A stretch of DNA of 64,000 nucleotides from Escherichia coli (GTDB taxonomy: Bacteria > Pseudomonadota > Gammaproteobacteria > Enterobacterales > Enterobacteriaceae): NCBI RefSeq assembly GCF_030384885.1, contig NZ_CP128613.1; one strand, given 5' to 3'. Positions within the stretch are counted from its first letter, which is position 1. Each line of letters starts with the position of its first letter. Position numbers and translations under genes: made by a program. Of the stretch, positions 35,836 to 38,692 are shown piece after piece. The notes beneath the pieces are model-generated. The model did not search any database and was not told where the DNA came from. It saw only the letters and a list, made by a program, of their open reading frames with translations.

Positions 35836-37209
35836 TTATTTTAATAACCGCACCCGGCACGTTTTTCCTTTAATCTTCCCGCCCTGTAACTGTTTCCATG
35901 CTTTATGAGCAACAGCCTGACGCACCGCAACATAGACATGCGCCGGATGCACGGCGATTTTGCCAATATCTGCGCCATCAAGCCCGATATCTCCTGTCAG
36001 CGCACCTAATACATCACCCGGGCGCATTTTGGCTTTTTTCCCGCCATCGATACATAACGTTGCCATTTCTGCTTCCAGCGGCACAATGGAACTATTAACT
36101 GGCGGCGTTTGCCAGTTAAGTTTTATCTGCAACATGTCAGAAATGATATTGGCCCGCTGTGCTTCTTCCGGGGCACAGAAACTGATCGCCAGACCGCTAT
36201 TTCCTGCACGCGCTGTACGCCCGATGCGATGTACATGAACTTCAGGGTCCCACGCCAGTTCAAAGTTCACTACCAGCTCAAGCGATTTAATATCAAGACC
36301 ACGCGCAGCAACATCCGTCGCAACCAGCACACGAGCGCTACCGTTAGCAAAACGTACCAGGGTCTGATCGCGGTCACGTTGCTCCAGATCGCCATGTAAC
36401 GACAATGCACTTTGCCCTATGTCATTCAGCGCGTCGCAGACAGCCTGACAATCTTTTTTGGTATTGCAAAACACCACGCAAGAGGATGGCTGATGCAAAC
36501 TTAATAACCGTTGCAACAGCGGAATTTTGCCTTTGCTGGATGTCTCATAAAATTGTTGTTCAATGGGAGGCAGAGCATCTGTTGAGTCAATTTCAATCGC
36601 CAATGGATCGCGTTGCACTCGTCCGCTGATTGCGGTGATGGCTTCCGGCCAGGTTGCCGAAAACAGAAGCGTCTGTCGAGATGCTGGCGCAAAACGGATA
36701 ACATCATCAATGGCATCGCTAAATCCCATATCCAGCATGCGATCGGCTTCATCCATCACCAGCATATTCAACGCATCCAGTGATACCGTGCCTTTTTGCA
36801 GATGGTCCAGCAAACGACCCGGGGTTGCCACGATAATATGCGGCGCATGTTGCAACGAATCACGCTGCATACCGAACGGTTGACCACCGCACAAAGTCAA
36901 AATTTTGGTATTTGGCAGAAAACGCGCCAGCCGACGCAATTCACCTGCCACCTGATCCGCCAGTTCACGCGTAGGGCACAGCACTAAAGCCTGGGTCTGA
37001 AATAGCGACGCATCAATTTTCTGTAGCAGCCCGAGGCCAAAAGCCGCCGTTTTGCCGCTGCCGGTTTTCGCCTGCACGCGAACATCTTTTCCGGCAAGGA
37101 TCGCCGGAAGCGCGGCGGCCTGCACCGGCGTCATAGTTAAATAACCCAACTCATTAAGGTTCGTGAGTTGGGCGGGAGGCAAAACATTCAGGGTAGAAAA
37201 AGCGGTCAC
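35836..37209 (-). CDS. dbpA: ATP-dependent DEAD-box RNA helicase DbpA
   Basis: 457-aa ORF, GTG start; Q-motif, Walker A AKTGSGKT, DEAD box VMDEAD, SAT. Confidence 0.93.
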   Translation of the reverse strand: MTAFSTLNVLPPAQLTNLNELGYLTMTPVQAAALPAILAGKDVRVQAKTGSGKTAAFGLGLLQKIDASLFQTQALVLCPTRELADQVAGELRRLARFLPNTKILTLCGGQPFGMQRDSLQHAPHIIVATPGRLLDHLQKGTVSLDALNMLVMDEADRMLDMGFSDAIDDVIRFAPASRQTLLFSATWPEAITAISGRVQRDPLAIEIDSTDALPPIEQQFYETSSKGKIPLLQRLLSLHQPSSCVVFCNTKKDCQAVCDALNDIGQSALSLHGDLEQRDRDQTLVRFANGSARVLVATDVAARGLDIKSLELVVNFELAWDPEVHVHRIGRTARAGNSGLAISFCAPEEAQRANIISDMLQIKLNWQTPPVNSSIVPLEAEMATLCIDGGKKAKMRPGDVLGALTGDIGLDGADIGKIAVHPAHVYVAVRQAVAHKAWKQLQGGKIKGKTCRVRLLK

Positions 37210-37239
37210 AATCTGTTCTCGTGGTCATCGACGCAAAAA

Positions 37240-37413
37240 TTAGCAAGCGCGTATCCTCGCAGATCTACGCTCACGATGCGACAATTTAATCGGTTCTTCA
37301 TCGGGTGGTGGGTCAGGCATGGGTTGCGGGCGAGGGATTGGATCGGGCACTGGAACAGGATCGCCAGGAATCGGTTCAGGGACAGGAATTTGCAAATAAA
37401 TGAGTGTCGTCAT
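37240..37413 (-). CDS. 57-aa proline-rich small protein upstream of dbpA (absent from the ORF track)
   Basis: ATG at 37413 preceded by GGAGGG with ~5 nt spacing; hand translation MTTLIYLQIPVPEPIPGDPVPVPDPIPRPQPMPDPPPDEEPIKLSHRERRSARIRAC*; stop 28 nt before the dbpA start. Confidence 0.5.
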   Translation of the reverse strand: MTTLIYLQIPVPEPIPGDPVPVPDPIPRPQPMPDPPPDEEPIKLSHRERRSARIRAC

Positions 37414-37470
37414 ATTTCCCTCCGGTCATTGGGTGGACTCTTAAAGGGTAGACGCTGATATATAACAGGC

Positions 37471-37592
37471 AAAAAAAAGCCGACTCATCAAAGTCGGCGT
37501 CGTACGAATCAATTGTGCTATGCAGTAATTCAAAAAAGGAAGTAAGACAATATGGAGCGCAACGCCCATCGCTTGACGTTGCATTCACCTGC
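37471..37592 (-). ncRNA. fnrS: FnrS sRNA (FNR-activated, Hfq-dependent)
   Basis: Reverse complement matches the recalled FnrS sequence GCAGGTGAATGCAACGTCAAGCGATGGGCG...GACGCCGACTTTGATGAGTCGGCTTTTTTTT, with its terminator. Confidence 0.85.
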
Positions 37593-37627
37593 AAGAGAGA
37601 TATTGCCCTGAATGGGTAGAGAGTTTA

Positions 37628-37641
37628 TTGACTTCGCTCAA
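37628..37641. promoter_or_regulatory. FNR-binding site of the fnrS promoter
   Basis: TTGACttcgCTCAA, close to the FNR consensus TTGAT-N4-ATCAA, centred about 42 bp upstream of the inferred FnrS 5' end. Confidence 0.65.
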
Positions 37642-37687
37642 ACTTTGCGGCGTTTTTGTATACAGATAGTAGGGAAAATTGCTGTTG

Positions 37688-38692
<1,005 letters not shown>

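Follow-up and report, generated by a model that had tools for sequence, protein, structure and literature searches.

The 57-codon, proline-rich reading frame between fnrS and dbpA in Escherichia coli is a genuine and already catalogued gene, ynaL, for a 57-residue cytoplasmic small protein. Comparison of the locus across Enterobacterales supports ynaL as a self-contained gene that is tied to fnrS, not a device for the control of dbpA. Judging from the pattern of selection, its functional unit is an acidic X-Pro repeat core of about 30 residues, and not the N-terminus or the basic tail. We favour, with moderate confidence, the reading that ynaL is an autonomous unit, the core of which most likely acts as a free, partner-binding peptide, any effect on dbpA being secondary. 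The finding of the gene itself matters little, since RefSeq, Pfam and papers on small proteins already cover it; what is new is the fnrS-anchored comparative picture of a gene previously known.

Identity of the ynaL gene

The window is the whole 64,000-nucleotide stretch of E. coli DNA that was analysed, and the features discussed are listed in Table 1. The start, frame, translation and stop of the minus-strand ORF, together with its GGAGGG Shine-Dalgarno (SD) sequence, all agree with the original prediction, and its placement between the fnrS terminator and dbpA is confirmed by the Rfam match, the terminator scan and the position of the dbpA GTG (37209). The distance from the ynaL stop codon to this GTG, given earlier as 28 nt, is 30 nt in the window (37239-37210) and 29 nt in K-12, the latter because of a 1-nt indel. 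The ORF had been described as unlisted, simply because the first-stage ORF track leaves out frames below 60 aa. RefSeq has the gene as ynaL, "proline-rich small protein YnaL", both in an identical record, where the gene order is zntB - ynaL - dbpA - ttcA, and in a K-12-lineage record; the YnaL of the window and that of K-12 carry the same protein accession, WP_001296046.1. The two genes differ at three positions, all of them synonymous, and the 1-nt indel lies just after the stop codon. In K-12, the gene occupies coordinates 1,409,308-1,409,481. Of 5426 complete E. coli genomes, 5392 have ynaL annotated in RefSeq; the variants within the species include an in-frame deletion of 11 codons.

YnaL is the founding member of the Pfam family PF23677 ('Protein YnaL-like'). 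The profile covers positions 1-57 of 57 (E = 2.2e-40, 136.8 bits) and is carried by 120 of 120 homologues among the matches listed; the protein of the window thus has both a full-length match to the profile and the orthologous position between fnrS and dbpA. According to VanOrsdel et al. 2018 (PMC6001520), an SPA tag placed in the chromosome allowed the K-12 protein, which is identical in sequence, to be detected, and tetracycline ribosome profiling gave a positive signal for it. That this protein is translated in K-12 has therefore been shown by others and, with PF23677, the small-protein option of the original prediction proves to have been established already.

In a literature search on YnaL function and on RpoS or EF-P dependence, VanOrsdel et al. 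2018 was the sole mention found. A profile search of 1.84 billion protein representatives returned just 39 YnaL matches, all of them small proteins with no additional domain attached, and a wider distribution or domain fusions were rejected; the longer of the 39 result from starts mis-called through fnrS or from frameshifted alleles. A defence-system or phage origin was rejected on the basis of zero matches for the locus in PADLOC and PHROGs. A sequence search of the PDB with YnaL gave no match.

Table 1 Features of the ynaL locus (positions are those of the window).
Feature	Position	Strand	Description
ynaL CDS	37240..37413	(-)	57 codons + TAA; start ATG 37413-37411, stop TAA 37242-37240; product MTTLIYLQIPVPEPIPGDPVPVPDPIPRPQPMPDPPPDEEPIKLSHRERRSARIRAC; RefSeq and Pfam match
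ynaL Shine-Dalgarno, GGAGGG	37418..37423	(-)	4-nt spacer (AAAT) to the ATG
Acidic X-Pro repeat core, codons 13-42	37288..37377	(-)	EPIPGDPVPVPDPIPRPQPMPDPPPDEEPI; purifying selection (codon alignment of 98 ORFs)
Pro35-Pro37, CCA CCA CCC	37303..37311	(-)	D-PPP-D motif, the single positionally conserved one; predicted EF-P-dependent pause site
fnrS small RNA gene	37475..37592	(-)	Rfam RF01796, 134.8 bits, E 1.4e-25; conserved upstream neighbour of ynaL
fnrS intrinsic terminator	stem 37498-37479, then T-run	(-)	terminator scan
Promoter-like box, C-TACCCT-TTAA	37441..37451	(-)	sigma-S-type extended -10, 9/11 against KCTAYRCTTAA; putative function
-35-like hexamer, TTGCCT	37467..37472	(-)	16-nt spacer to the -10 box; abuts the fnrS terminator T-run
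Invariant block 1, codons P41-R47	37278..37293	(-)	CCGATTAAATTGTCGC; junction alignment, 44 dbpA-adjacent species
Invariant block 2, 21 nt	37246..37266	(-)	AGATCTGCGAGGATACGCGC(T/C); encodes RSARIRA of the YnaL tail; conserved as DNA/RNA before dbpA
dbpA, ATP-dependent RNA helicase DbpA	35836..37209	(-)	GTG start; weak SD-like GAGAA 37220-37216; 30 nt past the ynaL stop

Linkage to fnrS and selection on the core

Loci anchored on fnrS were compared in 120 species of Enterobacterales. A proline-rich ORF with a strong SD follows the fnrS terminator by about 60 nt in approximately 100 of the 120, whether dbpA is present or not. The frame is open with a conserved SD and ATG in about 95 species-level genomes, and the SD is of the GGAGG or GGAG type in nearly all of the 100 orthologous loci; many orthologues (Pantoea, Erwinia, Cedecea, Buttiauxella and other genera) are uncalled as genes. 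Two classes of loci were distinguished: class A, in which ynaL is adjacent to dbpA (44 species), and class B, without dbpA. In Escherichia, Salmonella, Citrobacter, Enterobacter and Klebsiella, dbpA sits between ynaL and ttcA. In about half of the ynaL-bearing species, dbpA is absent downstream and ynaL is followed by ttcA, in convergent orientation in most of them; in a few Erwinia, ttcA shares the strand of ynaL and lies 116-181 nt beyond it. In 51/52 class B loci, a GC-rich hairpin bearing A- and T-runs begins some 7-8 nt past the ynaL stop codon; it is a bidirectional terminator common to ynaL and the convergent ttcA. In Kluyvera, the SD, start codon and core of ynaL are deleted and dbpA is retained. 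From these gene orders, the stable partner of ynaL is fnrS with its terminator, and not dbpA.

In the codon alignment, dN/dS for the core is 0.18 over all sequences and 0.09 when class A is taken alone, and that of the N-terminus is about 1, indicating neutral evolution. The variability at codon positions 1, 2 and 3 is 0.21, 0.21 and 0.49, respectively, and all four CCN codons occur in the invariant proline columns. As the frame and the SD are kept in about 95 species while silent sites vary, the ORF is far beyond chance; the Ka/Ks and frame-conservation check suggested with the original prediction thus comes out in favour of a coding sequence.

The core also has a distinctive composition. There are about nine PxP motifs per YnaL sequence, compared with 2.7-4.2 in shuffled sequences (a 2-3 fold enrichment), while PP dipeptides are overall depleted two-fold relative to the shuffles; PPP is nevertheless present in 91% of the sequences against 54% of the shuffles. 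PDPPPDE is found in 36 of the 44 class A sequences, and 33 of 51 class B sequences have a second D-PPP exactly two residues ahead of the stop codon. The net charge of the core is -6 in E. coli and the whole-protein mean in class B is -5. An AlphaFold model from the single sequence, with a low pTM of 0.26, has no secondary structure in residues 1-45 and a short helix at 46-56. The earlier remark that polyproline stretches cause ribosome stalling that needs EF-P is reasonable. YnaL tends to avoid runs of proline, yet holds one [D]PPP at a conserved position, where EF-P dependence is predicted from general findings on polyproline stalling (PMC4176338, PMC5021804). YnaL is not among the entries listed in the accessible part of one EfpL/EF-P dataset supplement.

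Upstream of ynaL, the motif CTAnnCT occurs in 92 of 100 loci, compared with 1.4% of background windows, and the end of its hexamer lies at a fixed distance of 30-32 nt from the ATG across the loci. The letters C-T-A and C-T of the box are at least 95% conserved in an alignment of about 100 loci; the -35-like hexamer is TTGCCT, TTGCCA or TTGGCT in most of them, with a 16-nt spacer in 56 of 92. The box resembles the sigma-S extended -10 consensus KCTAYRCTTAA (cited in PMC5650638): that of the window, TCTACCCTTTA, matches at 9 of 11 positions and has the C at -13, while those of Klebsiella (TCTACGCTTAA) and Pantoea (CTATGCTTAA) match CTAYRCTTAA at every position, Pantoea having C in place of the K. 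At the R position, most class A species have C. A sigma-70 consensus promoter was rejected, as none passes in a scan of 37100-37800, and the conserved box surfaced only through the comparative alignment. The literature searched yielded neither mapped transcription starts nor rpoS-mutant results for ynaL. The conservation of the box suggests that ynaL probably has its own stationary-phase-type promoter, and the match to the consensus points to a possible use of sigma-S there.

In the reading that we favour, a weak promoter set against the fnrS terminator, consisting of the TTGCCT -35 hexamer, the 16-nt spacer and the sigma-S-like C-TACCCT-TTAA box, would give rise, from a predicted start around 37438-37436 (about 7 nt past TACCCT), to a ynaL mRNA with a 5' UTR of about 25 nt, translation of which would be driven by the strong GGAGGG SD. 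The core, approximately 30 residues of alternating X-Pro with Asp/Glu and a net charge of about -6, is predicted to adopt an extended, polyproline-II-like rod without a globular fold; it would most likely act as a free peptide, presumably by binding a partner. Synthesis of YnaL should need EF-P at the one conserved D-PPP site, while the first 8-20 residues are evolutionarily free. In the five genera named above with dbpA between ynaL and ttcA, the ORF simply reads on into the invariant element upstream of dbpA, giving the basic tail RSARIRAC. An influence on dbpA, if any, would be secondary and restricted to lineages in which dbpA lies between ynaL and ttcA; it could be exerted by ribosome traffic through the element, or by Rho-dependent polarity on the C-rich mRNA should ribosomes stall at PPP. 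Such a lineage-specific side effect on dbpA, via polarity or coupling, is possible. For experimenters, the comparison indicates which residues to mutate, and species without dbpA allow the function of the peptide to be separated from effects on dbpA.

The region upstream of dbpA and alternative roles for ynaL

The junction alignment of the 44 dbpA-adjacent species contains two invariant blocks. Homology to the loci without dbpA stops directly after CCGATT in block 1. Block 2 is invariant even at synonymous sites, persists in 10 species that have the ynaL stop codon ahead of it, and is retained in Kluyvera without ynaL; it has no match in Rfam. Since block 2 stays where ynaL ends earlier or is lost, the tail is not selected as protein. 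Protein-level selection on RSARIRAC was therefore rejected, the conservation being at the nucleotide level and independent of translation, and the tail dN/dS of 0.73 is uninformative. Based on this pattern, the tail is best described as ynaL read-through of a nucleotide-invariant element belonging to the upstream region of dbpA. A possible resemblance of the element (GGAUACGCG) to 23S rRNA near helices 90-93 (GGUACGCGAG) is too short to mean anything. The element is separate from ynaL and uncharacterised, and dbpA regulation is best studied through it.

The alignment also has a conserved cGAGA 8-9 nt ahead of the dbpA GTG. Depending on the species, the ynaL stop codon precedes the dbpA start by 57-62, 27-30 or 14-19 nt, or the two overlap. 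The usual class A geometry, with the stop 27-30 nt from a weak-SD GTG, could support coupling. A hidden +1-frame ORF (37301-37206) ends in GTGA on the dbpA start, and most species have an open +1 frame (9 stops, where about 21 would be expected). Such an ORF, or a +1 frameshift after CCC, was rejected as the ORF lacks a conserved ATG, at least 12 of the 44 species having GAC instead; the GTGA overlap arises only where dbpA happens to be in frame 0.

The original prediction had also raised the possibility of a translational leader affecting dbpA. As the main role of ynaL, this would have ribosomes pause at D-PPP-D whenever EF-P or prolyl-tRNA runs short, such that dbpA expression tracks translation capacity: paused ribosomes would uncouple from RNA polymerase, and either Rho would load on the C-rich mRNA or the start region of dbpA would remain base-paired to the invariant element. 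We consider this unlikely, as most of the comparative observations point away from a role centred on dbpA. The PPP motif is indeed positionally conserved and the ORF is C-rich and G-poor (C/G 1.63; 42 C and 18 G in the core), a rut-like composition, and the proline-codon leaders mgtL and mgtP are known precedents; selection on ynaL, however, spans about 30 residues of the peptide, beyond what proline codons or mere translation would require. A possible ynaL-dbpA operon was suggested by VanOrsdel et al. (PMC6001520), but about half of the species with ynaL lack dbpA and have a terminator after the ynaL stop codon instead, and Kluyvera has dbpA and the element without ynaL. Although the stop lies 27-30 nt before the weak-SD GTG in 30 of the 44 dbpA-adjacent species, its position varies over about 110 nt among them and the relative reading frames of the two genes split 15/15/14, which is random. 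DbpA protein, moreover, is enriched in exponential phase, whereas the ynaL promoter box is sigma-S-like.

At the level of the RNA, the rut-like composition is the one positive sign of a leader. RNAalifold proposes a pairing between the invariant element and GUGACCGCUUUUUC at the start of dbpA, at -3.9 kcal/mol and with zero covariation because every column is invariant; this modelled long-range pairing may be regarded as a weak lead. A stable or unusual mRNA structure across ynaL-dbpA was rejected, the fold being not above that of shuffles (minimum free energy -55.4 kcal/mol versus -61.2, z = +1.2). The terminator scan flags a hairpin and T-run at the ynaL stop codon (37260-37243), which was rejected as an intrinsic terminator or attenuator: the T-run stems from an indel/substitution confined to the lineage of the window (K-12 has TAACTTTGC) and is not conserved across species. 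The 44-species junction alignment has no conserved terminator or attenuator between ynaL and dbpA.

The selection pattern taken alone is also compatible with an action in cis, because about 30 conserved residues before PPP would fit an arrest peptide in the ribosome tunnel. YnaL would then sense translation capacity as a cis-acting arrest peptide, the 26-30 residues before PPP tuning an EF-P-dependent arrest; the output would be on its own mRNA or on neighbouring transcription (the 3' end of fnrS, antisense ttcA or dbpA), with no free peptide. The ribosome exit tunnel holds a peptide of roughly the length of the core (about 30 residues), and the conserved core ends at the fixed D-PPP. The second D-PPP of class B, two residues before the stop, has the terminator hairpin 7-8 nt beyond. 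The reach of a ribosome is, however, estimated at roughly 15 nt 3' of the P-site codon, by which one positioned on the class B PPP would extend to about the stop codon, short of the hairpin. Polyproline stalling is described as being modulated by the upstream sequence (PMC4176338). Against an arrest, no conserved alternative RNA structures were found, class B has no downstream cistron, and conservation extends throughout to residues other than proline (D, I, R, Q), as would rather be expected of a binding surface. As the SPA-tagged full-length product is reported to accumulate to detectable levels in wild-type cells, any arrest is not strong when EF-P is present. We regard this explanation as improbable.

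A combination of the two is about equally doubtful. Here, the core and D-PPP would serve as an arrest-type gauge of proline-translation/EF-P capacity, located beside fnrS across Enterobacterales, and the Escherichia-Salmonella-Klebsiella lineages would have co-opted the passage of ribosomes through ynaL and the 21-nt element to set the level of DbpA. If true, this would create a feedback loop between the capacity for peptide-bond formation and 50S assembly, as DbpA matures the peptidyl-transferase-centre region of 23S rRNA.

That the ORF is non-functional as a coding sequence and conserved only through other DNA or RNA signals (the fnrS 3' region, dbpA regulation) accords with the unconstrained N-terminus and with the YnaL-independent, nucleotide-level conservation of the last third of the ORF, but is scarcely credible given free silent sites with fixed amino acids in the core (dN/dS 0.09-0.18), the SD and ATG conserved in about 95 species, the ORF kept in 5392 of 5426 E. 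coli genomes, and the reported detection of the protein in K-12 (PMC6001520).

Comparison with known systems

Returning to the autonomous peptide that we favour, ynaL can be compared with several characterised systems. As in the proline-codon leaders mgtL and mgtP of Salmonella, and in EF-P-dependent transcription-translation coupling (Elgamal et al. 2016, PMC5021804), ynaL of the Escherichia group is a short C-rich ORF with a strong EF-P-type motif located upstream of another gene. Unlike these leaders, it is without a conserved terminator/antiterminator or alternative structures, and half of the species with ynaL lack a downstream gene, so that there is no consistent downstream cistron. About 30 residues of YnaL are under selection, compared with a few regulatory codons in the leaders, and dbpA survives the loss of ynaL in Kluyvera. 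As in SecM, TnaC and MifM, a conserved segment of approximately tunnel length ends at a proline-based, stall-prone site; in contrast to these, no downstream ribosome-binding site is demonstrably sequestered or released, and full-length YnaL accumulates.

The alternating X-Pro sequence of YnaL and its predicted extended, polyproline-II-like conformation resemble the proline-rich spacer of TonB. YnaL, however, has no membrane anchor or C-terminal domain, is only 57 aa long, and the match spans only the proline-rich stretch. The TonB matches are weak (NCBIfam NF008084, E = 2.9e-4, 20.8 bits against a cut-off of 315; Pfam TonB_N, E = 0.75). Homology to TonB, internalin or PARP was rejected, these matches being compositional and far below the cut-offs. 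The proline-rich antimicrobial peptides oncocin, Bac7 and apidaecin, which bind the ribosome tunnel or DnaK, are strongly cationic; YnaL is likewise short and rich in PxP/PRP, and contains PRPQP, but its core is strongly acidic. The closest counterpart is the YnaL of K-12, with which the protein of the window shares its amino acid sequence, the position between fnrS and dbpA, the SD and the start codon, with no difference at the protein level.

Identity of the reading frame as ynaL

The 57-codon proline-rich reading frame between the fnrS sRNA gene and the dbpA helicase gene is ynaL, an already known gene. Translation of the frame reproduces exactly the peptide of the original prediction, whose placement between the fnrS terminator and dbpA is also correct; its sole inaccuracy was the gap to dbpA, put at 28 nt, which is 30 nt in the window and 29 nt in K-12. 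A 601-nt query around the ORF gave one match in each of 5392 of the 5426 complete E. coli genomes and the ORF alone was found in the same number (5392/5426). The annotated feature beneath the matches is "ynaL: proline-rich small protein YnaL" or "protein YnaL", whose CDS has the protein accession WP_001296046.1 both in E. coli 2013C-4282, the record with 100% identity, and in a K-12-lineage record. The window and K-12 alleles have three differences, all third-position synonymous. Pfam holds a dedicated family, PF23677 ("Protein YnaL-like"), to which the peptide aligns end to end (E 2.2e-40), while NCBIfam has no YnaL HMM and its matches were compositional (e.g. the TonB proline region, 20.8 bits against a cut-off of 315). 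VanOrsdel et al. (2018, PMC6001520) place ynaL, with the exact 57-aa sequence, between fnrS and dbpA, describe a chromosomal SPA fusion of YnaL seen by immunoblot in LB cultures, mention a further positive result for ynaL from ribosome profiling with tetracycline and remark on a possible ynaL-dbpA operon. Beyond that paper, the searchable literature yielded no mention of YnaL.

Positions 37100-37700 of the window have at least 99% identity to only 16-18 of the 5392 E. coli genomes (95-99% to the others), which places the window in a less common E. coli lineage (best match, strain 2013C-4282). In 34 E. coli genomes the ynaL locus is missing, and six of the records that carry it are labelled plasmid. 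YnaL of E. coli E69 (locus L064) has lost 11 codons in frame (PEPIPGDPVPV), probably by repeat slippage, and a few database alleles (entries among P0161, P0163, P0167) are frameshifted after the core. Another tiny ORF of the neighbourhood, 15 codons long and situated 13 nt upstream of zntB, is annotated by RefSeq as "protein YnaN" under the gene label ydaN (469-516 of locus L001); the equivalent position in the window is around 38.7 kb on the minus strand.

Features of the ynaL locus in the window
Feature	Position	Strand	Remarks
fnrS	37475-37592	-	Rfam RF01796, 134.8 bits; directly upstream of ynaL
fnrS terminator hairpin	37498-37479	-	terminator scan; followed by eight T
-35-like TTGCCT	37472-37467	-	
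-10-like TACCCT	37450-37445	-	C at 37451, TTAA at 37444-37441
ynaL ATG	37413-37411	-	context ...CCGGAGGGAAATATG...
ynaL core, codons 13-42	37288-37377	-	acidic X-Pro repeat
Invariant block	37278-37293	-	CCGATTAA[AG][AT]TGTCGC, 44/44 class-A species
Second invariant block	37246-37266	-	AGATCTG[C/A]GAGGATACGCGCC, 44/44 class-A species
ynaL stop TAA	37242-37240	-	ends the 57-codon frame
dbpA start GTG	37209	-	

Distribution and conservation of YnaL

Because a peptide search would select intact frames, the comparative sample was assembled by locating 20 invariant nucleotides of fnrS in one genome per species, giving 120 Enterobacterales loci, four of which were too short to judge for the ORF. About 100 of the 120 contain a proline-rich ORF with a GGAGG-type Shine-Dalgarno (SD) sequence, starting ~60 nt after the fnrS terminator. 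The ORF was absent at the fnrS loci of Dickeya, Brenneria, Lonsdalea, Symbiopectobacterium, Serratia marcescens, Entomohabitans and Erwinia endophytica, and at two of Pectobacterium.

Two classes were recognised. In class A (44 species of Escherichia, Salmonella, Citrobacter, Enterobacter, Klebsiella, Lelliottia, some Kosakonia and others) dbpA follows ynaL and the peptide ends in ...PDPPPDEEPIKLSHRxRRSARIRAC. Class B (~50 species of Pantoea, Erwinia, Mixta, Winslowiella, Cedecea, Buttiauxella, Pluralibacter, Siccibacter, Mangrovibacter, Atlantibacter, Trabulsiella and others, with Pectobacterium more distant) has no dbpA at the locus and a peptide ending in ...DPDPxPIIDPPPH(R/M). The next gene in class B is ttcA, on the opposite strand and 30-60 nt away in most species; a few Erwinia have a ttcA-like gene on the same strand, 116-181 nt downstream of ynaL. 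At 51 of 52 class-B loci a GC-rich hairpin with flanking A-run and T-run, beginning ~7-8 nt past the ynaL stop, is a bidirectional terminator. In half of its range, therefore, ynaL forms a whole transcription unit on its own, and no gene is there for it to lead. With the outgroup family Erwiniaceae falling in class B, the arrangement fnrS, ynaL and convergent ttcA is probably ancestral and the presence of dbpA between ynaL and ttcA derived. Enterobacter sp. BIGb0383 (L010) has a class-A-like YnaL tail (...PDPPPEEVPYKLSRV), no dbpA and a convergent ttcA 44 nt downstream, which points to secondary dbpA loss or to an intermediate arrangement.

A set of 15 billion predicted proteins lacks four of five class-B orthologues tested, those of Cedecea, Erwinia sp. 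S63 (whose sequence is Pantoea-type), Erwinia and Pluralibacter (e.g. loci L044, L096, L019 and L028), which were therefore never called as genes; the fifth, from Pectobacterium, is present as a "hypothetical protein". PF23677 detects 29 of 49 class-B proteins, via the core only. Many database entries of 68-135 aa (P0002, P0003, P0007, P0137, P0149, P0150 and others) are ynaL with the start mis-called upstream, their N-terminal MQRQAMGVALHIVLLPF... being translated fnrS. A record labelled Martelella alba, an alphaproteobacterium, bears an enterobacterial fnrS-ynaL-ttcA locus, and "Enterobacter cancerogenus M004" and "Enterobacter ludwigii EnVs2" have a Pantoea-type YnaL (loci L122, L102 and L109); these assemblies are probably mislabelled or contaminated.

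Conservation and Ka/Ks across relatives had been named as a check in the original prediction; the frame is kept in ~100 species and the Nei-Gojobori dN/dS of the core is 0.18 (for class A alone 0.09, for class B alone 0.18). The class-B tail gave 0.26 and the first 8-20 residues a pN/pS of ~1.0-1.16. These figures are pairwise and take account of neither phylogeny nor the uncertain alignment of a peptide of low complexity, but there is no ambiguity in the pattern across codon positions: in the 98-ORF codon alignment, core positions 1 and 2 are almost invariant while position 3 is off the majority base in ~50% of sequences, and invariant proline columns use CCG, CCC, CCT and CCA. As judged from this pattern, what is conserved in the core is the amino-acid sequence, not an RNA motif or a mere open frame.

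PxP occurs ~9 times per sequence, compared with 2.7-4.2 in composition-preserving shuffles, in which PP dipeptides are two-fold more frequent than in YnaL. One [D]PPP stands at a fixed place. In class A it reads PDPPPDE, PPP being present in 91% of sequences compared with 54% of shuffles; in class B it reads xDPPPH(R/M)-stop, and 33 of 51 sequences have it two residues before the end. The net charge of E. coli YnaL is -6 in the core and +5 in the tail, and that of class-B proteins averages -5. The AlphaFold model (single sequence, pLDDT 83, pTM 0.26) has no secondary structure in residues 1-45 and a short helix at 46-56, and YnaL is accordingly predicted to be an extended chain rather than a fold. 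A sequence search of the PDB found no matching chain. A profile search of 1.84 billion cluster representatives returned 39 proteins, all small, the longer matches being starts mis-called through fnrS or frameshifted alleles; none of the 39 has the module fused to another domain.

The relation of ynaL to dbpA

Both blocks upstream of dbpA are invariant at synonymous positions too in the 44 dbpA-adjacent species, and are separated by ~11 nt of free sequence but fixed length. In ten species the ynaL stop (TAA, TAG or TGA) precedes the second block, which is unchanged. In Kluyvera (L033, L085) a deletion, at about 150-205 nt of the fnrS-anchored slice, runs from just after a promoter-like box to CCGATTAA, removing the SD, ATG and proline core and fusing the CTACCCT box to the element, so that Kluyvera offers a natural knockout of ynaL in which both the element and dbpA are kept. 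Where dbpA has another location, e.g. in Erwinia endophytica, the element is missing. Its persistence whether or not ynaL is translated through it, together with these two cases, suggests that it belongs to dbpA, probably as a promoter, operator or 5'-UTR element. The basic tail (RSARIRAC) is a nucleotide element read through by ynaL in most class-A species, not a selected peptide. Rfam gave no match for the element. RNAalifold pairs GAGGA..CGCGC with the dbpA start GUGACCGCUUUUUC, which is only a lead, as the energy is small and all columns are invariant, with no covariation.

The original prediction offered two readings, a small protein or a translational leader affecting dbpA. The former is upheld by protein-coding selection in the core, YnaL family identity and detection of the K-12 product. 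Points in favour of a leader role are the strong, conserved EF-P-type motif, an ORF that is C-rich and G-poor, as Rho substrates are (57 C and 35 G overall, 42 and 18 in the core), and the dbpA GTG start, with its weak SD (GAGAA), 30 nt after the ynaL stop. Against it, about half of the range lacks dbpA and has a terminator after ynaL, selection acts on the amino-acid sequence of the core, and element and dbpA persist in Kluyvera without ynaL. Moreover, the ynaL stop lies 57-62, 27-30 or 14-19 nt upstream of dbpA, or overlaps it, the frame relation is random (15/15/14), and neither a conserved terminator between the genes nor unusual RNA structure was found. Leading dbpA is thus not sustained as the primary role and is secondary and lineage-specific at best. 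An arrest peptide pure and simple is improbable: the core is about exit-tunnel length, ends at PPP and has a compatible selection pattern, but class B offers no identifiable output and full-length YnaL accumulates.

A +1-frame 31-codon ORF (37206-37301, minus strand), from just after the PPP codons to a TGA overlapping the dbpA GTG (GTGA), was considered and rejected: its ATG is unconserved, and the overlap requires one particular frame relation, whereas the relation varies at random between species. Most class-A species have the +1 frame open as far as the dbpA start, with 9 stops observed where ~21 were expected.

The likeliest mechanism, and one we consider reasonably probable, is that ynaL would be transcribed and translated autonomously, that its acidic X-Pro peptide would act in trans and that YnaL synthesis would depend on EF-P; the steps past identity and conservation are those we infer. 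Several by-products may be useful for bench work on YnaL or dbpA regulation: the linkage of ynaL to fnrS, the box that resembles a promoter, the invariant element close to dbpA and the numerous class-B orthologues that are not called as genes.

A promoter-like box upstream of ynaL

The alignment contains one conserved box between the fnrS terminator and the SD, C-T-A-Y-S-C-T-(T/A)-A-A. CTAnnCT is found at 92 of 100 loci compared with 1.4% of control windows, and the distance from the end of the hexamer to the ATG is 30-32 nt. At 16 nt further upstream, a TTGCCT-type hexamer immediately follows the T-run of the fnrS terminator. Overlap of the putative ynaL promoter with the fnrS terminator would be a simple possible reason for the tight fnrS-ynaL linkage. 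A generic sigma-70 scan found no promoter. The sigma-S extended -10 consensus, given as KCTAYRCTTAA where PMC5650638 quotes Weber et al. (2005), is matched at 9 of 11 positions by the box in the window, and CTAYRCTTAA at every position in Klebsiella and Pantoea/Erwinia, consistent with the putative use of sigma-S. DbpA protein is reported at higher levels in exponential phase than after prolonged stationary phase (PMC13393375), which, if ynaL is sigma-S-driven, argues against simple co-regulation of ynaL and dbpA.
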